Shown here: positions 5,467-19,482 of the stretch, one piece after another
Position numbering within the stretch: the first letter of the stretch is position 1
Layout of the letters: every line of letters starts with the position of its first letter
Assembly: GCA_050260175.1 (NCBI GenBank)
Contig: JBLNBS010000070.1
Location: forward strand, 3,379 to 67,378
Direction: 5' to 3'
Origin: Patescibacteria group bacterium
GTDB lineage: Bacteria; Bacillota; UBA4882; JAAYXC01
Length of the DNA: 64,000 nucleotides
Translations under genes and position numbers: made by a program
Notes under the pieces: model-generated
Database searches by the model: none
What the model was told of the DNA's origin: nothing
The model's input: only the letters and a program-made list of their open reading frames with translations

Positions 5467-5479
5467 GGATAAATGCCCG

Positions 5480-6742
5480 TCAGGACTGAATTCCTGCCGG
5501 GCTTTCTTTTTGTCCATCGGCGCCTACTGTATCCTTTGTGTATCCATTCCAAAGGGTATCCATAAAGGCGCCCATCCCCGCCGCCGCAGCCTCGTCCCGG
5601 CCCGGGAACAGGTGCCCATAAACCCCTAACGTCACGTGGATCGATGCGTGGCCCATGCGGTATTGCAAGGTCTTGGGGTCCACGCCTTGGGCGATCAGGA
5701 TCGCCGCGTGCGTGTGCCGCAAGGTATGCAAGCTTACCCCTTCGAGTCCGGCGGCCGAGGTTACTGCGGCCAGGTCCCGCCGCAGAACGTTCCTCTTCCT
5801 GAGCGGCCCGCCGTCCTCATCGGTGAAGACCAGATCCCATTCATTCCTCCACGGCGGCCAGTCCGGCACGTGCCGGCGCATGGCCGTTCTTCGTTCCCTG
5901 CGTTCGATGGCGGCCTGCTTCTCCGCGTCTTGGCGTTCCTTCTGCCGCGCCAAGGCGGCCATGCCCATGGGAGACAAGGTGATCGTCCGGCGGCCGGCGC
6001 CGGTCTTCACCGGGCTGATCGATATTTGACCCGTCGCCGAATCCTCGATGATGGCCTGCCGGACGGTGGCTTTCGACCCTTCCCAATCGATGGCGGACCA
6101 AGCTAAACCGCGCAGTTCCCCGGAACGCATCCCGCTGTCCAGGCCGAGCAGGAACAGATCCTCGAGCCTGGCCCCCCGGGCGGCGTCGAGGAACCGGCGC
6201 AGCTCGTCCGGTACGAGAAAGCGCGCTTCCTTGTGGGAGTAAGTCCGCTTTGCCGCCAAGCGGGCTGGGTTCCGCGCGATCAGCCCCTTGGCCAGGGCAT
6301 CGTCGAAGGCGGCCCGCAGGACAAGGGCGGCAAGGGCGACAGTCCGCGGGGAGAGCCCGGCCTCGTCCAGTTCGGCAAAGAGGGCGTTGATCCGTCGATA
6401 GTCCACCGCCGCCAGCTGAAGCCCGCCGAAGTAAGGCCGGATATATCGTTCATAGGTTTCCGTGTAGCTTGACAGGGTGGAAGGCCTGACTTCGGCTTTC
6501 TTCGCGCGCAGCCAGTCCCGGAAATGATGCTCGACCGTGATCCGCCCGACCTGGACCGGGGCGCCCTTCAACGCGTCGCCCTGCACGGTGCGCAGTTTCT
6601 CCAAGGCTTCGGTCTTGGTCCGGCCGTAGACTCGCCGGCGGATCCGCTTCCCGTTGGCGTCAAAGCCAAACGAGGCCTGAGCGTACCAAAGGCCGGACTT
6701 CAACCGGCCCACAGAACCTTCACCGCGGCCACGCCTTGGCAT
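5480..6742 (-). CDS. int: Tyrosine-type site-specific integrase
   Basis: N-terminal MPRRGRGEGS...GKRIRRRVYGRTKTEALEKL is typical of phage integrases. C-terminal catalytic region HTLRHTHAAIL...HASIHVTLGVYGHL carries the R..H..R..Y residues. RBS AAGGGAGG precedes the ATG at 6742. Confidence 0.85.
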   Translation of the reverse strand: MPRRGRGEGSVGRLKSGLWYAQASFGFDANGKRIRRRVYGRTKTEALEKLRTVQGDALKGAPVQVGRITVEHHFRDWLRAKKAEVRPSTLSSYTETYERYIRPYFGGLQLAAVDYRRINALFAELDEAGLSPRTVALAALVLRAAFDDALAKGLIARNPARLAAKRTYSHKEARFLVPDELRRFLDAARGARLEDLFLLGLDSGMRSGELRGLAWSAIDWEGSKATVRQAIIEDSATGQISISPVKTGAGRRTITLSPMGMAALARQKERQDAEKQAAIERRERRTAMRRHVPDWPPWRNEWDLVFTDEDGGPLRKRNVLRRDLAAVTSAAGLEGVSLHTLRHTHAAILIAQGVDPKTLQYRMGHASIHVTLGVYGHLFPGRDEAAAAGMGAFMDTLWNGYTKDTVGADGQKESPAGIQS

Positions 6743-6918
6743 TATGTCGCCTCCCTTGAATGGCCTCAAGATCGCTACGATCATATCAGGACGGGCTGGC
6801 ACAAACAAGGGCGAAGAACGAAAAGCGCGCCATCACAGCATTTGAAGGCGCCGACGACCGGATCATTGACCCGTGGTCGGGGCTAGATTTACGATAGGAC
6901 GCGAAAGGGGGCGCAGGA

Positions 6919-7140
6919 ATGAAAAGACAGAACGTTACTGAAGCGGCGTTTTTCGAGGATGGCTTGGTTCCGATCCCAGATGCGGCGCGATTCCTTGGGC
7001 TCGGGATCACAAAGGTCTACGAGTTAATGGGCAAGGGCCAGCTACCGTTCGTCTTGATCGACCGTTCCCGGCGGATCCGGCGAAGCGACCTTCGGCGGTT
7101 CGTAGAGGAACGGCGCCGCGGCGGGCAGGCGGCGAGCTGA
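6919..7140 (+). CDS. AlpA/excisionase-family HTH DNA-binding protein
   Basis: Short protein; AARFLGLGITKVYELMGKGQLPFVLIDRSRRIRRSDLRRF resembles the excisionase/MerR-type winged helix. It sits next to and divergent from the integrase gene. Confidence 0.55.
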   Translation: MKRQNVTEAAFFEDGLVPIPDAARFLGLGITKVYELMGKGQLPFVLIDRSRRIRRSDLRRFVEERRRGGQAAS

Positions 7141-7152
7141 GGAGGGATCGAG

Positions 7153-7419
7153 TTGGCGTGTGATGCCGGCGCTCATCATGATCCCGAAGGCTACCTGCTT
7201 CTTCCGCGGCAAATTCGGCGGACGCTCAAGACGGCCGGATTGGTCCTCGAGTGCTACCACGAAGAAAGCCTGGGGAAGATCATTGAGCTGTCTTGCCGGC
7301 GATGCGGGCGCGAGTGGGCGGTTTTCCGCATGTCAGACGGCCGCTATGTCCGTTCCTGGTGGCGCTGTCGGAACGGGTGCAACCTGCCAGGCCGACGGGC
7401 CAGCACGAAAGGGGGATGA
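7153..7419 (+). CDS. Small Cys-rich (zinc-ribbon-like) protein; TTG start after GAGGAGGG
   Basis: CRRCG...CRNGC motif pairs with a strong RBS upstream. No family assignment is possible. Confidence 0.35.
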   Translation: MACDAGAHHDPEGYLLLPRQIRRTLKTAGLVLECYHEESLGKIIELSCRRCGREWAVFRMSDGRYVRSWWRCRNGCNLPGRRASTKGG

Positions 7420-7426
7420 GCTGACG

Positions 7427-7603
7427 ATGGGCGATGTCATCCTTTTGCCTGCCCTACGTAACGGCCAGCTATGCCCAATGTGCTTCCAACACCCGGTCTT
7501 ACCGGGCCGGCTGTGCTGGACGTGTGAGCACTTGATGGATTCCGTGGAGGGATGCCTTCGCCGCGAGGAGGAACGGGAGAGGGCGATACCCCATGCAAAA
7601 TAA
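7427..7603 (+). CDS. Small zinc-ribbon protein
   Basis: CPMC...CWTC motifs. The ATG at 7427 is preceded by AAAGGGGGA. Confidence 0.3.
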   Translation: MGDVILLPALRNGQLCPMCFQHPVLPGRLCWTCEHLMDSVEGCLRREEERERAIPHAK

Positions 7604-7655
7604 AGAAAACGCGCCCGGCGGAAACGGGCGCGGCGACGAAGGGTTGGTGACAAGG

Positions 7656-8717
7656 ATGTCTCATAATCAGGATACCACATCCATCCCGCAGAGACAAGAT
7701 CTCGCGGGCTTTTTTGGAGGTCAATGGGTGGCGGTTCCGCGCATCCTGTGGAGGGTGATTTGGCAAAAAGGGCTTACCATGTTGGAACTTAGGATTCTTG
7801 CGGTTTTGATAGACCAATCCTGGCATGCCGGCTACCGGGTGGATACCATGTCGCAAATAACGCCCGGGGATCTCGAGACGCTGATCGGTGGTCCCCGTTC
7901 TCGGATAAGGGCGGCCCTGCGTGCAATGGAATCCTGCAATGTGATCCAAAGGGCTGATGGCGGCCGCTACAGCGTTAATAAAGATCCTTGGGCCTGGACC
8001 GGTGATTATGCACTTGATAGAGCGGCCTTCGATACCGCCATGAACCACCTGAAGAGGATGAAGGAACGGAAATACCAAGCCGATGCTTTAGCGCATGTGT
8101 GCGCATCACGTGCGCAGCACGTTATGCAAACGACCCAAACGACAAGCCCTAAAGGACCAGTAGCAGGCAATATAGGGAGCATGCCCGAAGCATGCCCGGA
8201 GCATGCCCAGTTAGCGAATCACGAAGTGGGGACAGATCGTCCCCAGGAAGAATTGAAAGTGGGGACAGATTGTCCCCAGCAAATGGGGACAGATCGTCCC
8301 CACCTCGACGCCGCAAACCCCTGCGGCGACGGCGACGGCGGCGCCCCTTTAGAAGGTTCTTTAGATCCTAAAAGAAAGAAAAAAAGCAACTTAGATCCCC
8401 CGGCTGCCGCCGCTCATTCTTTGTCCGCGCCTTCGGCGACGGACGACGCGCACCGAACCTATACGCCCGGGGTGATCGTCGAGAGAATCAATACTGCCCG
8501 GAGCTTCAAGGGCATGCCACCATTGACCGATGAAGAGACGCAGGCCGAATTGCCTGGGATCAAGAGGTTCTGCGAACGGTTTACCGACGACGAGATCCGC
8601 CGCGGACTGGGTGAATGGATGGCAGGTGACCAACCCGCGACCGTGCCCGCGTTGATAGCGTTTCTCGTGGCTCGGCAACATCCGAAGGTGAGCCGTGCAG
8701 AGCGGCTTGTGAGTTGA
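7656..8717 (+). CDS. Replication-initiator-like protein with an N-terminal winged-helix (HTH_36-like) domain
   Basis: LTMLELRILAVLIDQSWHAGYRVDTMSQITPGDLETLIGG...RAALRAMESCNVIQR resembles phage/plasmid replication-initiator DNA-binding domains. The gene contains iteron-like repeats. Confidence 0.45.
   Translation: MSHNQDTTSIPQRQDLAGFFGGQWVAVPRILWRVIWQKGLTMLELRILAVLIDQSWHAGYRVDTMSQITPGDLETLIGGPRSRIRAALRAMESCNVIQRADGGRYSVNKDPWAWTGDYALDRAAFDTAMNHLKRMKERKYQADALAHVCASRAQHVMQTTQTTSPKGPVAGNIGSMPEACPEHAQLANHEVGTDRPQEELKVGTDCPQQMGTDRPHLDAANPCGDGDGGAPLEGSLDPKRKKKSNLDPPAAAAHSLSAPSATDDAHRTYTPGVIVERINTARSFKGMPPLTDEETQAELPGIKRFCERFTDDEIRRGLGEWMAGDQPATVPALIAFLVARQHPKVSRAERLVS
8227..8302. repeat. Three iteron-like palindromic repeats TGGGGACAGAT(C/T)GTCCCCA inside the rep-like gene
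   Basis: Near-identical 19-bp units at 8227-8245, 8260-8278 and 8284-8302. Each is a 7-bp inverted repeat (TGGGGAC/GTCCCCA) around a 5-bp spacer. Confidence 0.6.
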
Positions 8718-8749
8718 CGGTCATTCCTGGAATAGGGAGGAGGAGCGCA

Positions 8750-8950
8750 ATGCGGCGCGAGATACCGGGATTCGTGCCATTCCGCTGTCTGAAGTGCGCA
8801 AGTCATCTCGTGTGGCTGATCGGGCGGTCCTCGATTTGGTGCTCAGGGTGCCAAAGGCACATCGGCTGGGAGGAGTTCGAGCGAAGCCCGAGTGGCATGG
8901 AGACACTGCGGCCGGCCAGGGATGCATCACACACAATCATCTCTCGCTGA
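8750..8950 (+). CDS. Small zinc-ribbon protein
   Basis: CLKC...CSGC motif pairs. The ATG at 8750 is preceded by GGGAGGAGG. Confidence 0.35.
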   Translation: MRREIPGFVPFRCLKCASHLVWLIGRSSIWCSGCQRHIGWEEFERSPSGMETLRPARDASHTIISR

Positions 8951-9281
8951 ATCTTAATCGCAGGTAGAAGGCACGTCACGAGGAGTTTTCGGAAACCAAC
9001 TTAAAAACAAAGCCACGATAGATCTATTGCCCAGCTAGACTGCGGGGCGTGGGATGCATCACAAGGCGTGAAAATCGAAAACAGGTCAGCGAGGGATGTT
9101 TACCAGATTTTTCCTCCCCCCCTCGGGTTCGGGTAGGGCGGCCAGGCGATGACCGGAAGGGGGAGGCTTCCGACTCGTACAGGCCGAAATTTCAAATTTT
9201 TCCCATGGATTCGAGGCCGCACGAGCCTGGTCCAGGAATTTCCTGGAAGAATGGACATTTTGCCGATTTCGGGAATCAAGC

Positions 9282-9310
9282 TTGACGGCTCATCGGGGAC
9301 ATGCTATAGT
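9282..9310 (+). promoter_or_regulatory. Strong candidate sigma-A promoter driving the RHH to tape-measure to capsid block
   Basis: TTGACG -35 box, 17-nt spacer, TATAGT -10 box, located after a ~400-bp non-coding gap. Confidence 0.5.
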
Positions 9311-9331
9311 ATTACCGATAGCATTACCGAT
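9311..9331. promoter_or_regulatory. Two direct repeats ATTACCGAT just downstream of the -10 box (candidate operator)
   Basis: ATTACCGAT at 9311-9319 and 9323-9331, between the promoter and the RHH gene. Confidence 0.4.
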
Positions 9332-9364
9332 GATATTCGCTTATAGACTATGAGGAGGATTCCG

Positions 9365-9841
9365 ATGGGCGATACTTTCAGTGTCAAGCTCCCGGCCGGT
9401 CTTCCCCTGGCCGACATCGACGCGGCAGCCGCGGCGCGGGGATTGAACCGCAACCAATTCGTAATCGATGCGATCGGGCTTCTGGCGGTCCTCACTCCCG
9501 AGTTCATCCAGGCAGTGGATCACTTCGCCGCCGGCCTTCGGGTACCGCGCGCGACGGTGATTGAGGCGTTCACGATCCGCCGCCTAGCGGAACTGAAGGC
9601 AAAGGCGACGGTTCACCCGCGCTATAGCGAAGCTCTGGATGAGATCATGCTCTCTTCGCGGGGCGCCATTCTTGGGCAAGAACTGCTTGCTACACTTACA
9701 AACCAATTCGCCCAGCGGGAGCGGGACCGCCTGACCCGGGCCGAACGGGCGAAGAACCCCAAGCAAACGGCGACCGGCGCCGGCATCCCGCCCGAGGCCG
9801 ACGAAGACGAGATAGTCACGCAGGGTGAGTTGGATGAGTAA
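9365..9841 (+). CDS. Ribbon-helix-helix (CopG/Arc-like) domain protein
   Basis: The N-terminus FSVKLPAGLPLADIDAAAAARGLNRNQFVIDAI fits the RHH beta-strand plus two helices. RBS GAGGAGG precedes the ATG at 9365. Confidence 0.4.
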   Translation: MGDTFSVKLPAGLPLADIDAAAAARGLNRNQFVIDAIGLLAVLTPEFIQAVDHFAAGLRVPRATVIEAFTIRRLAELKAKATVHPRYSEALDEIMLSSRGAILGQELLATLTNQFAQRERDRLTRAERAKNPKQTATGAGIPPEADEDEIVTQGELDE

Positions 9842-9996
9842 AAAAATCGCGCTGGTTCTGCTCATCCTGCTGATTGTGTGGCTTTTCAGGTCCCCCCGTG
9901 GGCGCCTGGTCACAGGAAGGCTAATCTACTGGGTGGCTTGGAACATCGGTTGGGCGGTTGAGCTTGTAAAATTGATTATTTTTGGGGGCGCTAAGG

Positions 9997-12552
9997 ATGG
10001 CGCTGCTGGGCAAACTCGCCGTCGCCGTAGTCGGTGACATCAACCAGCTCAAAACCTCTTTCCGCGAGGTCAAGAGAGAGTCCCAGTCTTTGGGGAGAGA
10101 GGTTCAGAAGTCCGGTCTGGGCCTTCAGCAGATCGCCAAGTATGGCACGATGGCCGGCGCGGCGATCGTATCGGCCATGGGCGCCATGACCATCGCCACT
10201 ACCAAGAGCGCGGAGGAGATCGATCTCCTCAGCAAAAGGACGGGCGTATCCCGCGAGGAACTGCAGGGCCTTGCCTACGCAGCCCAGCAAGAGGGCACGG
10301 ACATACAGAGCCTCGGAACGGCCCTGGCCCGGCTTTCGCAAAACATGTACGACGCGAGCCAGGGGACCGGCGAGGCGCGTAAGGCTTTCAAAGACTTCGG
10401 CATCGTTGTCACGGATGGACAGGGGCGCCTCCGGTCTTCTGCAGACGTGCTCATGGACCTGGCCGATCGCATGAGGGGTATGACCAACGAGACCGAGATG
10501 TCTGCCCTGGCCATGAAAGTACTTGGCCGTGGCGCGCAGGATTTGGTACCGTTCCTCCGTATGGGCCGGGCGGAGATCGAACGGCTCATCGAGGAGGCGC
10601 GACGGCTCGGATACGTCATCGGTGAAGAGGCAACAAAACAGCTCGAGGCCCTGGGGGACGAGCTTGACGCCATTAAAATAGGTTTTGCCGGGTTCGGTAG
10701 GCAAATCTCGGCGGACCTTGTGCCAGTTAATCTTGCCTTCGCCCGCGGCCTCAAGGAGATTTTGATGTGGATTCATGCGATCCCTGCGCCGATTCGCAAG
10801 CTGGTGACGGTCGGCTCCCTATTGGCAGGGACAATCGCCCTGATTGGGGGCGCCCTGTCGTTACTGGTTGTCAAAGCCGCAGCGGCCCGCGCGGCCTTGC
10901 TGGCTTTGGGCACATCGTTTGGGCCATTCCTTATTGGCGGAGCCGTCGTTGTCGGTATCGGAGCAGCCGTCAGTTTGATCGGTGAAATCGCCCAGCGTGT
11001 CAAAGTGATAAAAGGCGATCTCGACGATATGTCACGCAATACACTAGAAGCCGAACTCATCAAATGGGAAGCCAGGCTGAAAAAGGCGCGAGAAGAATTA
11101 CGAAAAACAGAAAAGATGGTCGGGCAAAAATATGATCCCAAGAAAAATACTGACATGTTGGGGCCGTTATATATCGGTGGTATTCTTGATGAAATTGAAG
11201 TCGCCAATAAAGCAGTCGCTAATCTCAAAAAGAGATTGAAAGAACTTGGCGAGGAAGAGCCTGCGGCTGGCACAGAGAAATGGTCCCTGACCGAAACCCT
11301 CGCCAAAGCCAAGAAAGAGCTTGCCGACATCGACAAGATAGCTGATGCCTTCGGCGACAAGAGCCAGGTAGCCGCCGACAAGATAGCCGTGCTCAAGCGC
11401 GTCATCGTTGACCTGATCGAGCATGGATATGACCCGACAAAGACCAGCCTGGGGAATCTCATCGCCATGTACCAGGCATATGCCGAGGCCTCCCAGGCCG
11501 CCACCGACGCCAAGGAGCGGGAAAAGAAGGCGACCGATCTCCTCACGCAAGCCCAGCAGGCACTCAACGGGGAGACCTACCAAGATATCTCCGCACTGGA
11601 GACCCTGCGCGCACAGCTTGAGGCGCAGGCAGCCGTGGATACGGAACGCGCCGATTCTCTCAGGGCGGCGGCCGCAGCCCTGAACGTCCTGATCCTATCT
11701 CTGCGCCAAGCGACCCAGGACGAGCAGAACGCCGCGGAAGCGACGGAACTCCTTGCCCAGGGGCAAGCCAAGCTGGCGGAGATGACCGGCCAAGCGATCC
11801 CGGAGTGGGAGACGTTCGCCCAGAAGCTCGAGGAGGCCGCCGCGGAGTCCGGCGTCCTGCCGGAGACGGCCGAGGCCCTGCGCGACCTGGCCGCGGCGAT
11901 CCGCGAGGCGGGCCTGGCCACCGTGGAGATCGAACCCTATGATTTCGAAACCGCCTTCATCGCCGGCCTGCGGGACACGGCCAAGGAGTGGAAGGACTTC
12001 CTGGACCACGTGCGCGGGGGCGCGGCGGACTTGGCACAGACCATGAACCAGACCCTCAACGACTTCTTCTTTGACGGTGTGACCGCTCAGCTCAAGAACC
12101 TGGGCGACTATGCCCAGCAGGTATTCAACTCCATCGCCCGCAGTTTCGCCAATATGCTCTCGGACATGTTAATGAACTGGCTGATGAGCGGCTTCACCAA
12201 CATATTTGGCGGCGGGTTCTTTGGTGGCGGGCCGGTTGGTATGCCCTGGCCGTCTTATATCGGTACCATGGCCGAGGGTGGGACCGTGGCGGCGCGGGCG
12301 GCCTACCTCGTGGGCGAACGCGGGCCTGAGTTATTCGTCCCGCAGCAGTCCGGGACCATCATCCCCAATGACGAGATCGGCAGTCTCTCCCCTAAAGTTA
12401 CAGTCAACCTGATTAATCAGTCCGGCACTCCCCTGCAGGTAACGGACCGCAGAACCGAGGTTGACGGCGAGCAGGTAGTCGCCACACTCTGGCTTGGCGC
12501 CTACTCGAAGAACAAGGGCGGCCTGCAGGACGTTCTTGGCGGGGGGCGATAA
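9997..12552 (+). CDS. Phage tail tape-measure protein (TP901-family-like)
   Basis: 852 aa, highly helical. The N-terminal core TGVSREELQGLAYAAQQEGTDIQSLGTALARL...FKDFGIVVTDGQGRLRS resembles tape-measure cores. Central hydrophobic segments and a long coiled coil follow. The C-terminus carries the conserved GERGPELFVP motif. Confidence 0.65.
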   Translation: MALLGKLAVAVVGDINQLKTSFREVKRESQSLGREVQKSGLGLQQIAKYGTMAGAAIVSAMGAMTIATTKSAEEIDLLSKRTGVSREELQGLAYAAQQEGTDIQSLGTALARLSQNMYDASQGTGEARKAFKDFGIVVTDGQGRLRSSADVLMDLADRMRGMTNETEMSALAMKVLGRGAQDLVPFLRMGRAEIERLIEEARRLGYVIGEEATKQLEALGDELDAIKIGFAGFGRQISADLVPVNLAFARGLKEILMWIHAIPAPIRKLVTVGSLLAGTIALIGGALSLLVVKAAAARAALLALGTSFGPFLIGGAVVVGIGAAVSLIGEIAQRVKVIKGDLDDMSRNTLEAELIKWEARLKKAREELRKTEKMVGQKYDPKKNTDMLGPLYIGGILDEIEVANKAVANLKKRLKELGEEEPAAGTEKWSLTETLAKAKKELADIDKIADAFGDKSQVAADKIAVLKRVIVDLIEHGYDPTKTSLGNLIAMYQAYAEASQAATDAKEREKKATDLLTQAQQALNGETYQDISALETLRAQLEAQAAVDTERADSLRAAAAALNVLILSLRQATQDEQNAAEATELLAQGQAKLAEMTGQAIPEWETFAQKLEEAAAESGVLPETAEALRDLAAAIREAGLATVEIEPYDFETAFIAGLRDTAKEWKDFLDHVRGGAADLAQTMNQTLNDFFFDGVTAQLKNLGDYAQQVFNSIARSFANMLSDMLMNWLMSGFTNIFGGGFFGGGPVGMPWPSYIGTMAEGGTVAARAAYLVGERGPELFVPQQSGTIIPNDEIGSLSPKVTVNLINQSGTPLQVTDRRTEVDGEQVVATLWLGAYSKNKGGLQDVLGGGR

Positions 12553-12554
12553 CG

Positions 12555-13325
12555 ATGCCGGCTTTTATTGAACCGCTGCCGCGCGGTACGGGGAACGCTG
12601 TGGTGGTTTGCCACAAAGCGCGATGGGCTCTCGTCCAGGATGACGAATTAAGGCGAAACATTCTCCTCCTCGCGCGGGAGTTTTTCCCGCTGGAGCATTG
12701 GCTTGCCCTGCGAGAAGGCGACCGCCTGGTTTATTGGCGCGTTGATGATCGATACCATCCCGGTAAAAACTTGGCCCTGGACGCGACTTGGTCGGCCACC
12801 GCGCCAACGCTACCAACGAACCCCGAAGACAGGCACGCGGTACGGCTGGGGCGAATTGTTGGCGTCCTCCCGGATCGGAGGCTTTGCTTCATCAGGGACT
12901 TGGCAACAGGCAGGGAGATCCTTTGCCACGCGCGGGCCGTTATACCCGCCAGTGATTGGTCTATGCTGACGGTAGGGACTCTGGTGTCTTTTTGCGCCGA
13001 TTACGATCGGCTCCATCCAGGTCTTTTCCGCGCCGTTGTTGTTCAGCGTGGCAATGCAGAGGAAATTCACGCCGGCCTCCCCGGGGTTCTCGTGGCCGCC
13101 GCCGATCCCCCGGTCGAGGACGGCCAGAAGGCCACAAAAAGCGAAGAGACCACCAGTGCCGCCGGTGTTGGCGGCGGCTGTGGCATAGAACCCGGGTTCC
13201 GCTGGAGAGCGGACCTGCCGCGGCCTGTTGGAGAGCAGGGAAACGGCCTTGCCGAACTACCACGAGGCCACCGCGCAAGAGTTGGAGAACCCTTGCCGCG
13301 GGCGTTGGAGAACGCGGCCGGATGA
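12555..13325 (+). CDS. Hypothetical protein; the 3' extent is uncertain
   Basis: Start codon overlaps the tape-measure stop (ATAACGATG). No recognisable domain. The C-terminal half is compositionally odd. Confidence 0.3.
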   Translation: MPAFIEPLPRGTGNAVVVCHKARWALVQDDELRRNILLLAREFFPLEHWLALREGDRLVYWRVDDRYHPGKNLALDATWSATAPTLPTNPEDRHAVRLGRIVGVLPDRRLCFIRDLATGREILCHARAVIPASDWSMLTVGTLVSFCADYDRLHPGLFRAVVVQRGNAEEIHAGLPGVLVAAADPPVEDGQKATKSEETTSAAGVGGGCGIEPGFRWRADLPRPVGEQGNGLAELPRGHRARVGEPLPRALENAAG

Positions 13326-13379
13326 ACGGACGGCAGGAGGGTGAATGGAACCCCAAAAACAGGAAAGGGAGTGTCACGG

Positions 13380-14642
13380 ATGACACCTGATGAGATTCGG
13401 GCTGCGATCGCGGAAAAGGGCGAGCAGAAACGCGCGTTACTCAGGCGGATTGACAAAGCCCCCGTGGAGGAACTTAGAGCGATCAATATCGGCCTGGAAA
13501 ACCTGAACGCGGAAATCGCCGATTTGCAGCAGCAATTGGCCGAAAGCGAAGCCCAGCGGACGCCTGGCGGCCCTGTGGGTCGGATGCAGATCTTGGGTAC
13601 CTATGGAATCCACCCCGCCGCCGGCAACGTCGCGGGCACGGGCGCCATGCGGGAAGAGTTCCGCGCGGCCCTCGAGGAAAAAGGCAAGGCGCTTCTCGAG
13701 CGGCGCGCGGTGATCTTTACACCCGAGGAGATCGCGGAAGCACGGTCCATCACAATCGCTACTACCGGGATCGTAACAGGCAAGGCCGTCGATCCGACGA
13801 TCGCCCCCGCGCCCCAGCAGGTGAGCGCGCTGATCGACATGGTAGACGCGCCGACGATGATTGGTGCCGAATCGTTTGCCAAGCCGTTCCTGGTCAGCGT
13901 AGGGGAGGGCGATTACACCGGCGAAGGTTTAGACGCCGCGGAAGCGGAACCGACCTTTGGATCGGTTACGATTCAAAAGGCGAAAGTGACCGCGTATGCC
14001 GAATTTTCCGAGGAAATGCGCAAACTGTCGCCGATTGACTACGCCGTGGCCATCATCGGCGGGGTTCGGGAAGCCGTGCGAAAAAAACTCGGCCGGCAGA
14101 TCGTTGTCGGCTCCGGTGGTGTCAATGCCCTCGTTGGCATCTATAACGCCCCGGAGGCCGTCATCCCGGCCGCGTCGGACCTGGAGATTGGGACCGTCGA
14201 TTCGGAGACACTCAACAAGTTAATTTTCGGCTTCGGCGGAGATGAGGCCGTGGAAGGCGAAGAGGCCGTCCTGATCCTGAACAAGCTGGACCTCAAAGCC
14301 CTCGCGGATCTTTATGGAAACGATGGTCGAAACCTTTACGACATCCAATATGCCGGCGCTACTGGGTTTATCACTAACCGCGGGGGCGGCGGGATGAAGA
14401 TTCGGTACGTCATCAACGGCGCATGCGGCGTTCTGAGCGACCCGGCTACAGTCGCAGGTGCCAAAACCATGTTGTTCGGCTATGCCAAGGCCTATACCCT
14501 GTGTCAGTTCAGCGGCCTCGAGGTCCAAGAGTCATCCGAGTACCTCTTCAAGAAGGGCATGATTGCAGTGCGGGCCGTTGCGATGGTTGGCGGTAACACG
14601 GCGCGGTACAAGGGTTTCGTCCGTGTCAAGAAAGCGGCCTAG
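13380..14642 (+). CDS. HK97-fold major capsid protein-like protein with an N-terminal coiled-coil delta domain
   Basis: About 420 aa. The first ~100 aa are coiled coil (scaffold-like delta domain). The C-terminal part has the glycine-rich, beta-rich pattern of HK97-family capsid proteins (GFGGDEAVEGEEAVLILNK...ITNRGGGGMKIRYV...). AAGGGAG RBS precedes the start. Confidence 0.5.
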   Translation: MTPDEIRAAIAEKGEQKRALLRRIDKAPVEELRAINIGLENLNAEIADLQQQLAESEAQRTPGGPVGRMQILGTYGIHPAAGNVAGTGAMREEFRAALEEKGKALLERRAVIFTPEEIAEARSITIATTGIVTGKAVDPTIAPAPQQVSALIDMVDAPTMIGAESFAKPFLVSVGEGDYTGEGLDAAEAEPTFGSVTIQKAKVTAYAEFSEEMRKLSPIDYAVAIIGGVREAVRKKLGRQIVVGSGGVNALVGIYNAPEAVIPAASDLEIGTVDSETLNKLIFGFGGDEAVEGEEAVLILNKLDLKALADLYGNDGRNLYDIQYAGATGFITNRGGGGMKIRYVINGACGVLSDPATVAGAKTMLFGYAKAYTLCQFSGLEVQESSEYLFKKGMIAVRAVAMVGGNTARYKGFVRVKKAA

Positions 14643-14795
14643 CGGCGCCCTGAGAACCTCGTGGAGTTACAGCGCGCCCGGTTCACGCCGGGCGCGCCTA
14701 CGGTTCCCGCGTGATCCCGGCCTTTTCGTTCGTCCTTGGCAGGGCGGCAGCCGGGGGCGATGAACCCCCGGCCGCCGGCAAGAGGAGATGATTCC

Positions 14796-15407
14796 ATGGA
14801 CCGCTACTTCGTTGACAAGGATGGCTATGTGTACAGATACGATGGGGAATTAGAGCGGCCAGATCCCGAGATCACGGAGGCACTTGCCGAGATCACCCTG
14901 GCCCGCCATCAACGGTTCCCTTTCCCCCTGCCCGCCGACTGGCCGCGGTTTAGAGCCTTCATTACCTCTAGCGGTGAGGTGTACGTTGCCGAAGCGCCAC
15001 GCAACGAAGCAGATAAGGACATCTCCTGCCGGCTGCCAAAGTACCACGTATCACCGACGTACATCACTCCGTCTGGCGATTGCTATAACGGCGACAGGCA
15101 GAGCGAAGAGGACATCGAAGTTCCTCCCAAGCCTCCTTTCCATAGGTGGGATGGCCAGAAATGGGCCTTCGACATTGAGGTGTACCGTCAGGAGTATCTG
15201 CGGCCCCGGCGTAATGCCCTGTTGGCCGCGACCGATTGGACGGACCTACCTTCCGCTCCGCTTACGGCGGAACAGAAGGCGGCCTGGCAAACTTACCGGC
15301 AGGCTCTACGGGATCTCCCCGAAAAGACCACAAGTGCCGAAGTGGCCTGGCCGGAGATGCCGATGAAAATCCAAACCCTACCTGATTTAGGAGGTCTGAT
15401 AGCATGA
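14796..15407 (+). CDS. Phage tail fibre assembly (Tfa)-like protein
   Basis: The C-terminal motif NALLAATDWTDLPSAPLTAEQKAAWQTYRQALRDLP...WPEMP matches the conserved Tfa/gpG C-terminus (W..YR..L......WP..P). RBS AGAGGAG precedes the start. Confidence 0.45.
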   Translation: MDRYFVDKDGYVYRYDGELERPDPEITEALAEITLARHQRFPFPLPADWPRFRAFITSSGEVYVAEAPRNEADKDISCRLPKYHVSPTYITPSGDCYNGDRQSEEDIEVPPKPPFHRWDGQKWAFDIEVYRQEYLRPRRNALLAATDWTDLPSAPLTAEQKAAWQTYRQALRDLPEKTTSAEVAWPEMPMKIQTLPDLGGLIA

Positions 15408-16213
15408 GCGGCGCCATCAAAGTTTCCGGCGCGACGTTTCTCCATTTATGTTATCATCCCACTATCCACGAGTCTCAGCCCGTCGAACACCTGGGCGTGA
15501 AGCCGTGGGCCATAGGACGGTCATACGAGTTCGGAAAGACCGCCAATCCGCACAAAAAATTCATTGATTCGCGGCTCTTTGGTATTAAGAATCCCCACAC
15601 AGGGAACATTCATTTTTTGAATCACTTAATACAAGAGATATATTCATTTGGGAAAACAGGTCAAAAAGACTCCGTGATATCCACTTTTTACCACTATGAC
15701 CCGCTTATCGCATTCCATGAGGCTAATGTTTTAATTTATGAACTGCTCTATATCATCCGCGAACAAATCTTTGAGGAGGTCAGGCGGGAGCGGTTCCCTT
15801 CGCTTCCTTCCAGGGAAACATGCCTCTTCGCCTTGAATGACAGCGAGAAAGATCTTGATTATTGGATAAACAATCTGCTTGGCGGCCGGGCAGCGGCCGA
15901 AGGTAAAGAATCCTTCCCGGTTACCCTGGTTAAAATCAGGTTCACCGGGAAGGTGTTCAAAACAAACCGCTTGACCGGTGTGTTTCTGCCGCTGGTTTCT
16001 GCGGGTCCGGATTATTGGCGCGAACAAGCGGGCAAGTACTGGTCGGGATCCGTCCCAGACTCACCAGACGCGGAAGAGGTTCTTCTTGGGGAAGGCGTAG
16101 GCGTGGTCGAATCTATTTCTCCGATCGAGTGGCGCGTGGATCCTGTGCAGTTCAGTACGGCGCGAAAGGCCGAACTGGTCCAGACTACCTTGGTCCCGGC
16201 GGCAGGAGGTTGA
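15404..16213 (+). CDS. Hypothetical protein in a low-GC island (cargo/moron candidate)
   Basis: The 5' two-thirds is markedly AT-richer than its surroundings. The start overlaps the upstream stop (ATGA). No family recognised. Confidence 0.45.
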   Translation: MSGAIKVSGATFLHLCYHPTIHESQPVEHLGVKPWAIGRSYEFGKTANPHKKFIDSRLFGIKNPHTGNIHFLNHLIQEIYSFGKTGQKDSVISTFYHYDPLIAFHEANVLIYELLYIIREQIFEEVRRERFPSLPSRETCLFALNDSEKDLDYWINNLLGGRAAAEGKESFPVTLVKIRFTGKVFKTNRLTGVFLPLVSAGPDYWREQAGKYWSGSVPDSPDAEEVLLGEGVGVVESISPIEWRVDPVQFSTARKAELVQTTLVPAAGG

Positions 16214-16291
16214 TTCCAGATTAACTACATACGCTGCGCCAATCCGAACTGCTCCACCCTGTTTGACTCCCGGTGCGGCTCTGTTTGTTCA

Positions 16292-17209
16292 GTGTGCCGT
16301 GCGGCCCAGGCGGCGGGGAAGCTGCCCTTAGAATTTCCCAAGATTGAGCCAGCCGCTACAGTCACTCCCGCAGGATCGGGAAGTCTCGTCACATATTTCC
16401 CGGTGCACCATGGTTCCCTGGGCGTCCAGATACGAGGCGCGGAATATTCATGGGTTCGCTATACTTCGGGGTTCTCCGCGCCGCCCGACGTGGTGGACCT
16501 TTGCACGGTCTACCATACGTGGTCCCTTGTCGGGATGAGTTATCATCAATGGGGCAGGATTATTGTTCGACCCAAGTCCTATGTTGGGCTTTATTCGACC
16601 CCCCGATGTCACAACGATCTATTTGATGATTTTCACGCCATAACAAGAGTGGATCTCGAAATGATGGAGAAATGGGGCCGAGAAAACAATTCGTTATTTG
16701 ATTGGCGGTTGTCTTCTTCGAATCCACCAAATGGACGCGGACCTAAACAATTTGGCGAAAACGCGATTATTCCGATTTGTATTGCCCAAATACCCGAAGG
16801 TTTCCTCAAGGTTTTTTATGGCGGTGTTCATTCGTTTGGGTTGAACTGGGAATTCTCACCCGATGGTAGATTCAGCAGCAATACGGAACCTCCAACTGCG
16901 GAAGACAGCAAAATGCTGTATGAACGCGCGTTCCGGATCAAGGCCGCGAAAATGCTCTGGTTGACTGATTGGACTACCCGGGCTGATGCACCGCTGACGG
17001 AAGAGAAACGCGCAGCCTGGGACGCATACCGCGCGGCTCTTTACTGCCCAGACGAGATCCTTTCGGGTGCCCGGGAGATGCCGCGGATGCCGGCAGGCCG
17101 GGTCCTTAATCCGAGGTGGGACTCAGCACCGATGGAAATCTGTTGGGACACCTGGTGGAAGTTCAGGGAGCCGGCTGGCAACGCAGGTGATTTTCCCTTG
17201 GCTGAGTGA
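16292..17209 (+). CDS. Hypothetical protein with a Tfa-like C-terminal motif; possible Cys-rich N-terminal extension from 16214
   Basis: C-terminus AAKMLWLTDWTTRADAPLTEEKRAAWDAYRAAL repeats the motif of the 14796 gene. The in-frame upstream stretch encodes RCANPNCSTLFDSRCGSVCSVC. Confidence 0.4.
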   Translation: MCRAAQAAGKLPLEFPKIEPAATVTPAGSGSLVTYFPVHHGSLGVQIRGAEYSWVRYTSGFSAPPDVVDLCTVYHTWSLVGMSYHQWGRIIVRPKSYVGLYSTPRCHNDLFDDFHAITRVDLEMMEKWGRENNSLFDWRLSSSNPPNGRGPKQFGENAIIPICIAQIPEGFLKVFYGGVHSFGLNWEFSPDGRFSSNTEPPTAEDSKMLYERAFRIKAAKMLWLTDWTTRADAPLTEEKRAAWDAYRAALYCPDEILSGAREMPRMPAGRVLNPRWDSAPMEICWDTWWKFREPAGNAGDFPLAE

Positions 17210-17247
17210 CGGTCCGTTTCGATCGGCAGCACCATGGAGGGTGAGAG

Positions 17248-17703
17248 ATGGCCGCGAGAACGCCGGGTGATCTCCTGCTGAGTTACGATGAGATCCGGCT
17301 GGTCTATAACACCCTGGCCGGCGTCCCGAACAAGTCTTTGCCCGCGGCTGAACTCCTGGGCAAGCTCTATCGGGCCATCGTGGTCCGGGCATCCCAGGAA
17401 GAGCGGGCGGAATTGGCCGCGCGGATCCGTGCCGGCGTGAACTATGCCGGCCGGCTGTGCCCGGAGTGCGGCCGGGGCCTCGAGAAGATCGCCGGCCAAG
17501 ATGCCTATGGCTGTCCCAAATGCGGCGGCGAGTGGTGGCCGGCGGACTCGAACGAGGCGCCGATGTCGGCGGCGGCCTTGTGGCAGGACGAGCAGCGGGT
17601 GAAGCGAGCCCTGATCGACCCGAACTCCCACGGCGGCGGCAAAAAGGGAGGTCGGCGTCAAAAGCAAAAGAAGCCGCCGCCAGTGCCCTGGTACCAAAGA
17701 TGA
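17248..17703 (+). CDS. Zinc-ribbon protein (CPECG...CPKCG) with a basic C-terminal tail
   Basis: Cys pairs spaced for a zinc ribbon, with a Lys/Arg-rich C-terminus. Confidence 0.4.
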   Translation: MAARTPGDLLLSYDEIRLVYNTLAGVPNKSLPAAELLGKLYRAIVVRASQEERAELAARIRAGVNYAGRLCPECGRGLEKIAGQDAYGCPKCGGEWWPADSNEAPMSAAALWQDEQRVKRALIDPNSHGGGKKGGRRQKQKKPPPVPWYQR

Positions 17704-17715
17704 TCCCCGCCCGGT

Positions 17716-17744
17716 CTATATAGACCTATATAGACTCTATATAG
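17716..17744. repeat. Three phased copies of the palindrome-like CTATATAG(A) at ~10.5-bp spacing
   Basis: CTATATAGA at 17716-17724 and 17726-17734, CTATATAG at 17737-17744. They lie between the ends of two convergent genes and overlap the stop of the minus-strand HTH gene. Confidence 0.6.
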
Positions 17745-17961
17745 GTTTTGTATCGTACGAAACAATTGTCTGGTTCAACCGTTCCCGGATCGCCTCTTTC
17801 GAGATCCTGAACCTGCGCCCGATCCTCATGGCCGGGATCTGGCCGGCATGGATGGCGTCGTAGATCGAGTCGTGCGTGACGTGTAGAAGCTCCGCCGCCT
17901 GATCGACGGTTAGCACGTCGTCATAATCATCGAACCGCTTGGGTTTGCGAGATCTGGGCAT
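17737..17961 (-). CDS. Excisionase-family HTH DNA-binding protein
   Basis: LTVDQAAELLHVTHDSIYDAIHAGQIPAMRIGRRFRISKEAIRERL matches the excisionase-type HTH fold. Confidence 0.6.
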   Translation of the reverse strand: MPRSRKPKRFDDYDDVLTVDQAAELLHVTHDSIYDAIHAGQIPAMRIGRRFRISKEAIRERLNQTIVSYDTKPI

Positions 17962-18340: not shown

Positions 18341-18538
18341 TTACGCGGGGCGGATTTGTGCATTGCACTGATCACAGAAGAACCGCTCTCCGTCGTCTAT
18401 GGCCTTCTGTATGTCCACAAAGGTGATTAGATCGTCCTGCCTTACTTTGTCAACTTCTTCTTCTGTGGCACAATCTTTACAAACTATTTCTTTATTGATG
18501 TAATACCCAGCGATTTCCTCATCTTTATAGGTGGCCAT
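18341..18538 (-). CDS. Small acidic zinc-ribbon protein
   Basis: CKDC...CDQC motif pairs in an AT-rich segment. Confidence 0.35.
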   Translation of the reverse strand: MATYKDEEIAGYYINKEIVCKDCATEEEVDKVRQDDLITFVDIQKAIDDGERFFCDQCNAQIRPA

Positions 18539-18671
18539 GGGTTACACCTCCTTTCGTCTGCCTTCATGATACCAGATCCTCTGGGCAAGCCCCAATAGGT
18601 GCGAAAATTCTTTTATTGACCGCTTGCCGTTACCTGCCACAGGCGGCCGCCATCCCGGACGGCACAATCCC

Positions 18672-18935
18672 CTAAGACTGGCGCCCCATAGAGACAAGGA
18701 TGGACTTCATTGCTTCGGCGAGAGGCACTTTCTTATGGCTTGGCGGCCGTTTCATACCAAGATCCGCCCAAGTGATAATCGCAATATCTGCCGCTTTCAG
18801 TTTCTCATTGGCCAAGCGCCAGATCGTGTGGTTCATGGCTTCGGGCAGATTGGCGAACGGGATGACAACCGGACCCGTCGAGAAATTCGCGGCAGCGGCG
18901 GCGATTTCCGGCCGGACGTGCAGACCGTCTTCCAT
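18672..18935 (-). CDS. Hypothetical protein
   Basis: ORF with coding-like composition; no family recognised. Confidence 0.25.
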   Translation of the reverse strand: MEDGLHVRPEIAAAAANFSTGPVVIPFANLPEAMNHTIWRLANEKLKAADIAIITWADLGMKRPPSHKKVPLAEAMKSILVSMGRQS

Positions 18936-19039
18936 CACTACACCCCTTCTCGCTTGTAAGTACATGCCTTCATATATAATACCATGCGTTCATATGGATG
19001 TCAAGCTTCGCATATGACCGAATTGTCTTCTAGTGTAGT

Positions 19040-19249
19040 TTGTGGTATCCTGTTACCGGGGAGGTGATCCGCTTGGAGTTCTTGACACCCGAGGAGGCCG
19101 CGGCCAAGCTCAAAGTGACCCGGCGAACGGTCTACAAATGGCTGACATCGGGGCGCATCAAGGGCGTAAAGCTTGGCGATAGTTCGTTATGGCGCATCCC
19201 GGAATCAGAGATGCTCCGCCTTCTCGGAGAGAGCCAAGGCCAAAAGTAA
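19040..19249 (+). CDS. Excisionase-family HTH DNA-binding protein (start uncertain)
   Basis: LTPEEAAAKLKVTRRTVYKWLTSGRIKGVKLGDSSLWRIPESEM matches the excisionase-family HTH fold. It lies next to attR. Confidence 0.5.
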   Translation: MWYPVTGEVIRLEFLTPEEAAAKLKVTRRTVYKWLTSGRIKGVKLGDSSLWRIPESEMLRLLGESQGQK

Positions 19250-19424: not shown

Positions 19425-19474
19425 CCTGACTTTTAATCAGGGAGTCTGGCGTTCGAGTCGCCAATGGCCCACCA
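19425..19474. repeat. attR: 50-bp copy of the tRNA-Lys 3' end
   Basis: Identical to 5417-5466. It lacks the 5' 26 nt of the tRNA. Confidence 0.7.
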
Positions 19475-19482
19475 GCTTTAAG

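Follow-up and report, generated by a model that had tools for sequence, protein, structure and literature searches.

Is a short chromosomal stretch that carries integration and replication genes beside a few virion genes a phage satellite, or is it the cryptic, mosaic remnant of a complete temperate siphophage from which the packaging, head-accessory, tail, and lysis genes disappeared through deletions and rearrangements? An earlier note on the window (the whole 64-kb stretch of DNA analysed here) had leaned toward a satellite and named a heavily decayed prophage as the other option. We propose, with a probability of roughly 0.5, that the locus is a helper-dependent satellite building chimeric virions. 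This satellite-like interpretation is the best-supported one; a remnant, whose capsid, tape-measure, and Tfa-like genes would be not-yet-mutated leftovers without a role in transfer, even if excision and reintegration may persist, is less likely but a serious alternative.

A discrete mobile element in tRNA-Lys

The span that the note had singled out (6919-17703) is the interior of a larger unit, a discrete 14.0-kb insertion in tRNA-Lys that occupies 5417-19475 of the window (Table 1). A perfect direct repeat of 51 bp marks its two ends, with copies spaced 14,008 bp, and the integrase gene abuts attL. In the closest related genome (L007; PurA 78% identical) the insertion site is empty, tRNA-Lys and tRNA-Arg being 1.7 kb apart versus 14.8 kb here, and the GC content is 0.586 in the element versus 0.664 in the flanking host DNA. 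The locus is a recently mobile, site-specific integrative element. The host was suggested to be a high-GC Firmicute, which is plausible given that the nearest named relatives of PurA are Bacillota, although the MAG labels read Patescibacteria and Bacteroidota.

The implausible taxonomic label of the source MAG, and the ending of two Logan contigs at the same internal point (18247), would be consistent with an assembly or binning artefact, i.e., a contig joined from fragments of different phages. This is, nevertheless, extremely improbable: three independent runs yielded identical assemblies of the element; contig L003, which derives from another run and another assembly, matches it at 100% identity over 5439-18247; contigs L004 (matching 11642-18247) and L005 (13254-14664) agree with it; a co-occurring variant (L087) is 99.2% identical over 5438-10474; and the element is framed by its att repeats precisely at the tRNA. 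No second copy was found in scans of IMG/VR and JGI, and a single population carries the element, an instance without a conserved family that counts in favor of a remnant.

Table 1. Features of the element, with coordinates in the window
Feature	Coordinates	Strand	Evidence and remarks
attL	5417..5467	+	left copy of the 51-bp direct repeat; 3' part of tRNA-Lys(UUU) 5391-5466
Tyrosine integrase	5480..6808	-	PF00589 5e-21, phrog_1 3e-72
HTH_17 protein ('xis')	6919..7140	+	PF12728 9e-11, phrog_66; divergent from int
Replication initiator 'rep', lambda-O-like	7593..8717	+	PF04492, weak N-terminal match
Putative origin inside rep	8224..8400		three iterons 8224-8306, then A/T-rich tract 8349-8400
Strong sigma-70-like promoter	9282..9310	+	TTGACG-17-TATAGT, extended -10; ahead of structural operon
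163-aa protein, first gene of operon	9350..9841	+	no Pfam, PHROG, or PDB match
Tail tape-measure protein, 851 aa, full length	9997..12552	+	PF10145; tape-measure PHROGs down to 5e-34
256-aa orphan	12555..13325	+	occupies the slot of the prohead protease in relatives
HK97-fold major capsid protein, 420 aa	13380..14642	+	PF05065 6.7e-27, profile positions 7-279 of 280
Tfa-like protein 1	14796..15407	+	PF16778 4e-18, phrog_4912, PDB 2kz6 1e-12
DUF2441 protein	15404..16213	+	PF10386 2.8e-11; lower-GC (0.51) segment
Tfa-like protein 2	16292..17209	+	PF16778 5.7e-5, under cut-off
151-aa zinc-ribbon protein, last gene of operon	17248..17703	+	weak matches to Cas12/TnpB C-terminal region, nothing else
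Three phased copies of palindrome CTATATAG	17716..17744		sole copies in the window
Second HTH_17 regulator	17737..17961	-	PF12728 1.9e-14
Two small ORFs	18341..18965	-	65-aa zinc ribbon 18341-18538; 97 aa 18672-18965
Third HTH_17 regulator	19040..19249	+	PF12728 1e-13
attR	19425..19475	+	right copy of the 51-bp direct repeat

Regulatory and replication genes

The regulatory and replication module described earlier was recovered as regards the HTH_17 'xis' gene and rep with its iterons, but the 'RHH' label of the gene at 9350-9841 came solely from reading the sequence and has no HMM support. The HTH_17 protein divergent from the integrase (for which gene prediction on contig L003, identical in sequence, places the start at 6742, giving 420 aa) is a candidate excisionase or AlpA-type regulator. 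Toward the right end, a strong promoter-like site at 19004-18976 accompanies the leftward pair of small ORFs, and the copies of CTATATAG (three observed versus 0.11 expected) form a candidate protein-binding array.

The Rep protein matches Phage_rep_O (PF04492) at 4.7e-5 with 24.3 bits, which is under the cut-off of 28.7, and it is essentially an orphan, its sole database relative being a 98% variant. The three iterons within its gene are dyad-symmetric and 24-26 nt long, and their number is polymorphic (3 or 4), the co-occurring variant L087 having a fourth iteron of 24 nt. An O-like initiator whose gene contains both iterons and an A/T-rich tract points to an autonomous lambda-type replicon. 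PLEs, satellites of the Vibrio cholerae phage ICP1, also carry an initiator and a replication origin of their own.

A compact structural operon

The structural genes follow one another on a single strand, separated by short gaps, behind a promoter-like site recognized by consensus match alone (10/12). Tight packing of this kind behind a strong promoter-like site speaks against a remnant, as do the 851 and 420 uninterrupted codons of the tape-measure and capsid genes, the perfect att repeat, and the intact integrase. The few virion genes named in the note were confirmed: the tape-measure gene by PF10145, the delta-bearing HK97-fold capsid gene by PF05065 with AlphaFold2 and Foldseek, and the pair of Tfa-like genes by PF16778, for the second through a match under cut-off plus its similarity to the first. 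The 163-aa protein was considered as the tail assembly chaperone of related phages and rejected (hhalign probability 0.1 against the chaperone profile); by the same comparison, no chaperone was detected beside the tape-measure gene. A 70-aa ORF at 9825-10037, judged hydrophobic from inspection of its translation and absent from the gene calls on L003, could be a holin, which qualifies the earlier statement that a holin is lacking.

The 256-aa protein, in which no protease was detectable, has only four matches, itself included, among 1.84 billion proteins; its AlphaFold2 model was unusable (pLDDT 36), and one homolog (P0124) shows a CSD domain at 2e-6, suggesting that it is probably a cold-shock-domain-like nucleic-acid binder. 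Tfa-like protein 1 combines an N-terminal domain without assignment and a C-terminal tail-fiber assembly/chaperone domain. The C-terminal 64 residues of Tfa-like protein 2 are 38% identical to it (E 5e-9), and that domain appears real; its N-terminal extent and full length are uncertain, with gene calls on the identical contigs L003 and L004 giving nothing or the last 98 aa alone, a point in favor of a remnant. The DUF2441 protein, which has no PADLOC match, is probable accessory cargo.

Capsid and tape-measure genes of different ancestry

The AlphaFold2 model of the capsid protein (pLDDT 85), a prediction that the note had proposed, has the HK97 fold and matches the capsids of HK97, RcGTA, Mycofy1, and the cf-PICI EcCI2 in the PDB (Foldseek probability 1.0); its first ~106 residues, helical with a disordered linker, form a delta-like domain in the model. 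It retains 58/68 conserved positions, the fewest in its family, which could reflect relaxed constraint and, as the greatest divergence at such positions, favors a remnant. In all 77 IMG/VR relatives, as well as in L001 and L002, the capsid gene is immediately preceded by genes for TerL, the portal, and the S78 protease.

The tape-measure protein keeps 130/145 conserved positions and is 37-52% identical to its full-length relatives (64-65% to the N-terminal fragment L093). A complete lambda-like tail module, comprising connector genes, tube protein, chaperone, tape-measure, and then gpM-, gpL-, gpK-, and gpJ-like genes, surrounds the gene in 8/8 relatives examined, three of which belong to the sequencing series that yielded the element. 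L090 and L174 (GC 0.58-0.60) share its run series (SRR24035584, SRR24035587), and their tape-measure proteins share 45-48% identity with that of the element (for L090, 62% across the N-terminal 296 aa); they represent a candidate helper lineage from the same habitat. These candidate phages share no sequence with the element beyond the tape-measure gene, and at 45-65% identity its tape-measure protein may be unfit for any co-occurring phage.

Phages that carry this tape-measure family encode capsid proteins unrelated to that of the element, and vice versa, indicating that the two genes were drawn from different phage lineages. Given these ancestries, and the tape-measure gene being upstream of the capsid gene, deletion from a prophage alone cannot yield the element: no head-then-tail phage is collinear with this order, and decay would have had to be accompanied by one or more rearrangements or captures.

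Missing functions

Searches of all 20 candidate ORFs with Pfam, PHROGs, and PADLOC, including the HMM searches advocated by the note, found no terminase, portal, protease, connector, tube, sheath, or lysin. The TerS, TerL, portal, protease, connector, and tail proteins of the closest phage relatives of the capsid were also used as tblastn probes; even at E<10 the capsid gene alone matched in the element, with no remnants of its neighbors, and nothing further matched across the 64-kb window. All five ORFs of at least 300 aa in the element are assigned, leaving no space for TerL or a portal. This gene content bears out the assertion that the element does not match a functional siphovirus or myovirus. 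Neither terS nor a cos or pac site could be identified in the element, and the lack of terS, cos, and a helper fits a remnant; the 77 capsid relatives, however, serve as a positive control for the always-flanking neighbors, of which no pseudogene fragments persist. Heavy decay, as the note's other option, is thus opposed by the att repeat, the intact and packed operon, the lack of such fragments, the gene order, and the dual ancestry.

Structural genes without their obligatory partners could also be read as an anti-phage interference island, in which the capsid and tape-measure proteins are mainly dominant-negative decoys that join the head or tail proteins of an infecting phage during assembly, poisoning it and shielding the host population, with the DUF2441 and small zinc-ribbon genes as further defense cargo. 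Satellites and prophages are known to prevent incoming phages from assembling tails or capsids (the Tai systems, PMC11364771; Rta of PLEs together with tape-measure substitution, PMC11838301), and the cargo segment at 15.4-17.2 kb is lower in GC. We regard this as improbable, since PADLOC detected no known defense protein in the element, and a full-length, conserved tape-measure protein and a delta-bearing capsid look made for assembly rather than interference alone; being compatible with satellite transfer, interference is more a facet of the helper-dependent satellite than a separate rival.

Comparison with known satellites and phages

By gene content the element falls outside the PICIs, cf-PICIs, P4, and EPIPs. 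The earlier likening to PICIs and cf-PICIs does not hold if membership is meant: a cf-PICI encodes all of the head and packaging functions but lacks tail genes (PMC10690885), whereas the element has the capsid alone of the head set, plus a tail gene. Like cf-PICIs and the Streptomyces satellites MulchRoom and MiniFlayer, it has its own HK97-fold capsid rather than a remodeled helper capsid, and it shares the 10-17 kb size class and integrase-at-the-end layout with cf-PICIs and MulchRoom (MiniFlayer lacks an integration module; PMC10690885). Unlike the element, these have a complete set of TerS, TerL, portal, capsid, scaffolding or protease functions, connectors, and HNH; tail genes are absent from MulchRoom and limited to a tail-fiber gene in MiniFlayer (PMC10690885).

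PLEs resemble the element at the level of gene content in being integrative and in encoding a tape-measure protein distantly related to that of the helper, which enters chimeric, otherwise helper-built tails (PMC11838301). They differ in host phylum, in having a chaperone (sometimes a baseplate hub) beside the tape-measure gene, in using the helper's capsid where the element has its own and no detectable chaperone, and in the contractile tail of ICP1 as against the lambda-like non-contractile tails of the element's tape-measure relatives. EPIPs (Extracellular Prophage-Inducing Particles) of Mycolicibacterium aichiense are likewise small (11 kb) and encode capsid and tape-measure proteins, with most tail genes and holins absent; the heads of their particles are smaller, and the tails are changed in length (PMC12822802, preprint). 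EPIPs have a small terminase, head-to-tail adaptor and stopper, scaffolding protein, and serine integrase, none detectable in the element, which in turn has a tyrosine integrase, lambda-O-type replicon, and Tfa-like genes. The parts themselves (Int, Xis-like HTH, O-like initiator with the origin inside its gene, delta-domain HK97-type capsid, Tfa-like proteins, and a tape-measure family used with gpM/L/K/J-like tips) are those of lambda/HK97-like temperate siphophages, a point in favor of a remnant; unlike such phages (about 40 kb), the element has about 14 kb, places the tape-measure gene upstream of the capsid gene, and lacks terminase, portal, protease, connector, tube, chaperone, tip, and lysis genes.

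A model for helper-dependent spread

The perfect att repeat, intact genes, own replicon, missing partners, and the precedents of PLEs and EPIPs together support the satellite, which would most likely need a helper phage to spread. Against it stand the single population and the orphan status of rep and the 256-aa protein, which leave no family whose shared architecture would show selection. The missing terS, cos, and pac sites, the lack of sequence shared with the candidate phages outside the tape-measure gene, the lack of a chaperone such as PLEs have, and the low conservation of the capsid protein also weigh against it. We propose that induction of, or infection by, a helper siphophage with a lambda-like tail would trigger excision of the element, replication from its own origin, and expression of its operon. 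Its capsid would assemble on the helper portal, be matured by the helper's S78-type protease, and be filled by the helper terminase. The shell might be small, since other satellites such as SaPIs and P4 enclose DNA of this size, 14 kb, in T=4 shells. The tape-measure protein would substitute for that of the helper in otherwise helper-built tails, as in PLEs, and the Tfa-like proteins would modify or assemble helper fibers.

The note's claim of novelty for a satellite with its own capsid and tape-measure protein was overstated in light of PLEs (PMC11838301) and EPIPs (PMC12822802): tape-measure genes in satellites have been known since 2025. The gene combination of the element, nonetheless, differs from both. 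What a satellite gains from its own tape-measure protein is a matter for speculation, one possibility being escape from exclusion or defense that targets the tape-measure protein.

A 14-kb integrative element in a tRNA-Lys gene

The element is integrative and encodes a recombinase, regulators and a replicon of its own. It also carries an operon of intact virion genes from which the usual partner genes are missing. The 3' part of the tRNA-Lys(UUU) gene recurs as a 51-bp perfect repeat 14,008 bp away. The GC content is 0.586 between the repeat copies versus 0.664 in the host flanks, whose genes are chromosomal (uvrA, purA, an Rsm22-like methyltransferase, a helicase, RtcB and transporters), and the distance from the tRNA-Lys to the next tRNA-Arg is 1.7 kb in the closest genome recovered (L007, PurA 78% identical) versus 14.8 kb in the window. 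The repeat, GC shift, flanks and tRNA spacing show that a discrete 14.0-kb stretch, 5417-19475, has been inserted here, and that the span singled out by the earlier note, 6919-17703, lies inside it. Three contigs (L003, L004 and L005) match the element at 100% identity over 5439-18247; as each was assembled from a separate sequencing run, the element is not an artefact of assembly. It was obtained from runs SRR24035584, 86 and 88, of paddy-soil microcosms. A co-occurring variant contig, L087, spans 5438-10474 at 99.2% identity. The element is known from one metagenomic instance, representing a single population. L003 and L004 both end at 18247, in its right arm, which suggests strain or element heterogeneity beyond that point. 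Rfam models matched two tRNAs and nothing further.

The window proteins bear the NCBI name "Patescibacteria group bacterium", and L007 is labelled "Bacteroidota"; further PurA relatives come from Bacillota MAGs (62% and 57%) and from Heliobacterium (56%), two of which also have their tRNA-Lys just downstream of purA. The host PurA is closest to named Bacillota, in conflict with the MAG labels, which are probably wrong. Elsewhere in the window, an RHS-repeat core protein gene is followed by a fall in GC to 0.33 at 53-54 kb, and the region 51581-54000 looks like a polymorphic-toxin tip with its immunity cassette.

Features of the element and its surroundings, in window coordinates
Feature	Position	Strand	Support or remarks
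tRNA-Lys(UUU)	5391-5466		ARAGORN
51-bp repeat, left copy	5417-5467		3' part of tRNA-Lys
Tyrosine-recombinase gene (int)	5480-6808	minus	PF00589 5e-21, phrog_1 3e-72; abuts left repeat copy
HTH_17 "xis" gene	6919-7140		Pfam/PHROGs; divergent from int
Zinc-ribbon ORF	7153-7419		CxxC...CxxC
Zinc-ribbon ORF	7424-7603		CxxC...CxxC
Initiator (rep), 374 aa	7593-8717		N-terminal lambda O domain match, 24.3 bits vs Pfam threshold 28.7 (sub-threshold)
Iterons	8224-8306		Three, dyad-symmetric
A/T-rich tract	8349-8400		
Zinc-ribbon ORF	8750-8950		CxxC...CxxC
Promoter-like site	9282-9310		Sigma-70-like, 10/12 match with extended -10
Same-strand gene run	9350-17703		Short gaps only; downstream of promoter match
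First gene of the run	9350-9841		
70-aa ORF	9825-10037		Overlaps 163-aa gene end and tape-measure gene start
Tape-measure protein	9997-12552		PF10145 34.1 bits vs 33.2; tape-measure PHROGs to 5e-34
Capsid protein	13380-14642		PF05065, 95 bits vs cut-off 24.2
Tfa-like protein 1	14796-15407		PF16778 4e-18
DUF2441 segment	15404-17209		GC 0.51-0.54
Tfa-like protein 2	16292-17209		Weaker match; only C-terminal 64-residue domain common to Tfa-1
Zinc-ribbon ORF	17248-17703		CxxC...CxxC
CTATATAG array	17716-17744		Three copies, spacing 10-11 bp
Zinc-ribbon ORF	18341-18538		CxxC...CxxC
51-bp repeat, right copy	19425-19475		
RHS-repeat core protein gene	51581-53725		

Regulators, replicon and accessory genes

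Pfam and PHROGs profiles bear out the earlier annotation of a xis-type HTH gene, a tape-measure gene, a capsid gene and two Tfa-like genes, and add two further HTH_17 genes near the element's right end; the RHH label given to the first gene of the same-strand run finds no profile support. The proposed replication gene with iterons stands in part, in that the iterons are present and the initiator match falls below threshold. This protein contains no primase or helicase domain, and its sole match among potential relatives is its own 98% variant. Iterons and A/T-rich tract lie, in that order, inside the initiator gene; the lambda origin inside gene O has the same layout. Compared with the window, L087 carries an extra 24-nt iteron in rep at 8283 (four copies versus three, adding 8 aa) and a 10-nt indel at 8974, in the intergenic region 8951-9349.

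The DUF2441 gene is wedged between the two Tfa-like genes, and its lower-GC segment is probably separately acquired accessory cargo, with no match to known defence genes; PADLOC likewise recovers no known defence protein or gene anywhere in the element. Five small ORFs encode zinc ribbons, the first two of which are not predicted in the gene calls of the identical contig L003, and a 151-aa one has a weak match (9.6e-5) to the Cas12/TnpB C-terminal region. The 70-aa ORF is also missing from the L003 gene calls. Its translation, as read by eye, is hydrophobic and contains two segments that might span the membrane, so it may have a holin-like or exclusion role. The palindromic octamer CTATATAG occurs three times in the 64-kb window (0.11 expected by chance), each time in the gap that separates the structural operon from a convergent HTH_17 gene. 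The copies could form an operator array or be recognized for packaging.

The capsid, tape-measure and Tfa-like proteins

Searches of PDB with the capsid protein, as a single sequence and as a profile, gave no matches, so a fold search was needed. An AlphaFold2 model built from a 53-sequence alignment (pLDDT 85) retrieves from PDB, by Foldseek, the capsid proteins of Mycofy1, the Rhodobacter GTA, HK97, D3 and the cf-PICI EcCI2 (probability 1.0, E-values down to 4e-15), and its residues 1-106 form long helices and a disordered linker resembling a delta domain. The predicted structure thus upholds the proposal of an HK97-fold capsid protein with a delta domain. An encapsulin was considered and judged unlikely, given the delta domain, the membership in a phage capsid family and the lack of an adjoining cargo gene.

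Apart from the element's own copy, the closest capsid relatives are 50% identical (on the contig L006) and then 40-43%; in the INPHARED cultured-phage set identity reaches at most 35%, in matches to uncultured records. The capsid protein retains 58 of 68 family-conserved positions, the lowest figure in the family, with mostly conservative changes (L to M, G to A, I to V, F to L, Y to F) and three non-conservative ones (F145P, Y186A, P342R); this divergence is compatible with relaxed constraint as well as with a shift toward a different assembly behavior, and does not decide between them. Of 145 positions with 90% or higher conservation across its relatives, the tape-measure protein keeps 130, which is mid-range for its family. 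Its relatives are 37-52% identical at full length, with one N-terminal fragment at 64-65%; in INPHARED cultured phages no match spans more than 30% of the query, and identity is 27-34% among the matches listed. Scans of IMG/VR with single capsid, tape-measure and Tfa-1 queries gave no matches, and a JGI scan with a tape-measure profile found two loci, both ordinary phages.

The L006 capsid gene was set aside as a second orphan-capsid element, the contig being 3.5 kb long and its capsid 44-48% identical to those of ordinary phages versus 50% here. In the region 170-2169 of L006 (JGI 3300022230), connector probes were negative downstream of the capsid gene, which is followed by a leftward HTH_17 gene 47% identical to the element's third. 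The contig L088, which encodes a homolog (P0124) of the element's 256-aa orphan, derives from the same metagenome. L006 may yet be a second such element; these contigs are very short.

Missing partners and mosaic origin

Profile searches of all 20 ORFs found no terminase, portal, protease, connector, tube, sheath, chaperone, tip or lysin. Since the five ORFs of at least 300 aa are all assigned (int, rep, tape-measure, capsid and Tfa-2), no TerL or portal can be hidden in the element. We also ran tblastn with head, packaging and tail proteins from phage relatives of the capsid and tape-measure: at E<10, probes from the capsid-bearing phage contigs L001 and L002 hit only the capsid gene in the element, and at E<0.01 all probes together, with those from L090 added, hit only the capsid and tape-measure genes in the 64-kb window. 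The probes work, as a positive control shows: they find TerL, portal and protease directly upstream of the capsid gene in 77 of the 77 capsid-homolog loci with upstream DNA (80 IMG/VR loci in all), each contig being scored for those of the three genes that it is long enough to include, and L001 and L002 have this arrangement too. The element thus holds no pseudogene remnants; outside it, this capsid family always occurs together with a portal and an S78 protease. The earlier observation that terminase, portal and protease are lacking therefore survives these searches, as does the view that this is no functional siphovirus or myovirus, the complete temperate siphovirus set from terminase to lysis genes being absent.

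Two ORFs were candidates for missing partners. The 163-aa protein encoded ahead of the tape-measure gene was rejected as a tail assembly chaperone after a negative hhalign comparison with the chaperone profile of related phages. The 256-aa ORF occupies the slot held by the protease in relatives, and Pfam, PHROGs and the tblastn probes give no support for a hidden prohead protease. It has no relatives in GTDB representative genomes; exhaustive HMMER searches of 1.84 billion proteins returned itself and three weak matches, and AlphaFold2 without an alignment gave an unusable model (pLDDT 36). P0124, the only homolog with a domain match, has a cold-shock DNA-binding domain, which points to a probable nucleic-acid-binding protein and away from a protease.

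The tape-measure relatives lie in canonical lambda-like tail modules in all eight contexts examined, in the order connectors, 266-271-aa tube, ~150-aa chaperone, tape-measure, then gpM-, gpL-, gpK (NlpC/P60)- and gpJ-like genes. The capsids of these phages are unrelated to the element's capsid, and the tape-measure proteins of its capsid relatives are unrelated to its tape-measure; the element is therefore a mosaic. The order of the two genes, tape-measure first and capsid after it, rules out descent from a head-then-tail prophage through deletions alone. Two candidate helper-type phages with tape-measure relatives, L174 and L090, come from runs SRR24035584 and SRR24035587, in the same series as the element's, and are similar in GC (0.58-0.60); comparison of the element's intergenic regions with the candidate helpers for shared cos or pac sites yielded chance-level matches only. 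A cryptic mosaic prophage remnant is the serious alternative, though we consider it less likely than not: it would agree with the single population, the somewhat divergent capsid protein, and the failure to find a helper, a packaging signal or a chaperone.

Comparison with known satellites

The earlier note likened the element to PICIs and cf-PICIs, a comparison that holds for the layout of classical PICIs/SaPIs: 14.0 kb, int abutting attL, att repeats and an HTH_17 gene divergent from int. Replication points both ways: where classical PICIs/SaPIs have a pri-rep primase-helicase and an adjacent iteron origin, the element has an iteron origin and a weak lambda-O match, with no primase or helicase domain. 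Of the packaging and capsid-redirection genes (terS, ppi, cpmAB and rpp), none has a Pfam/PHROG match, and small orphan ORFs could hide analogs. The cf-PICIs encode a full capsid module (capsid, protease, portal and head-tail connectors) with their own TerS, TerL and HNH and no tail genes, whereas the element has the capsid alone, no terminase or HNH, and a tape-measure with Tfa-like proteins. Psu, Sid, Delta and the alpha-primase of P4-like satellites likewise lack Pfam/PHROG matches.

EPIPs, with a serine integrase, small terminase, adaptor and stopper, scaffold, capsid and tape-measure (PMC12822802), share with the element the presence of both capsid and tape-measure; however, its integrase is of the tyrosine type, and Pfam and PHROGs recover neither terS nor an adaptor or stopper. 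Its own tape-measure protein is also reminiscent of PLEs, by functional analogy only (PMC11838301). PLEs are defined by RepA, TcaP, a chaperone with the tape-measure, a Vibrio host and the helper ICP1, whereas no chaperone was detected here. Gene content thus places the element outside the cf-PICI, classical PICI, P4-like and EPIP families; by analogy, it would work most like a cross of a cf-PICI or EPIP (own capsid) with a PLE (own tape-measure). The claim that a satellite with its own capsid and tape-measure would be new is weakened by these 2025 preprints (PMC12822802, PMC11838301). The element remains unusual in how far it is reduced, to capsid, tape-measure and Tfa genes accompanying a lambda-type replicon, and in belonging to a high-GC lineage that is uncultured.

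A candidate satellite and its significance

Because their relatives always pair with partners (portal and S78 protease for the delta-domain capsid; chaperone, tube and tip for the tape-measure), we infer that the capsid and tape-measure products function only with proteins supplied in trans by a helper phage. A satellite would be the most economical account. We propose that the element would replicate from its own origin, that its capsid protein would build shells, possibly small ones, on helper portals, and that the helper terminase would package it. SaPIs and P4 package 14 kb in T=4 shells. The tape-measure protein would in turn enter helper tails, a step with experimental precedent in the satellite-encoded tape-measure protein of PLEs (PMC11838301).

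We put at about 30% the probability that the element represents a new satellite class of an uncultured high-GC Bacillota-like soil bacterium. Its virion genes would be limited to those for the two size-determining proteins, the capsid with its own delta scaffold and the tape-measure, and for fiber-tip Tfa-like proteins; a lambda-like helper would supply portal, protease, terminase, connectors, tube and tip, and both heads and tails would be chimeric. The gain from an own tape-measure might, speculatively, be to evade exclusion or defence that targets the helper's, as with PLE11 Rta or HK97 gp15 (papers on gp15 are cited in PMC11364771). That the capsid and tape-measure instead serve as decoys or in interference appears improbable; such a role is compatible with satellite biology and not opposed to it.

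If the element is only a cryptic remnant, it holds little interest past annotation. If it is a working satellite, it would be a minimal "pick-and-mix" one in which nothing but capsid subunit and tail ruler is substituted, unlike those that remodel helper capsids (P4, SaPI) or carry a whole head (cf-PICI). The satellite-built chimeric tails described for Vibrio PLEs in 2025 would then have a counterpart among siphovirus-type tails and in a distant phylum, and the element would offer a natural test of which partners in head and tail accept foreign subunits.
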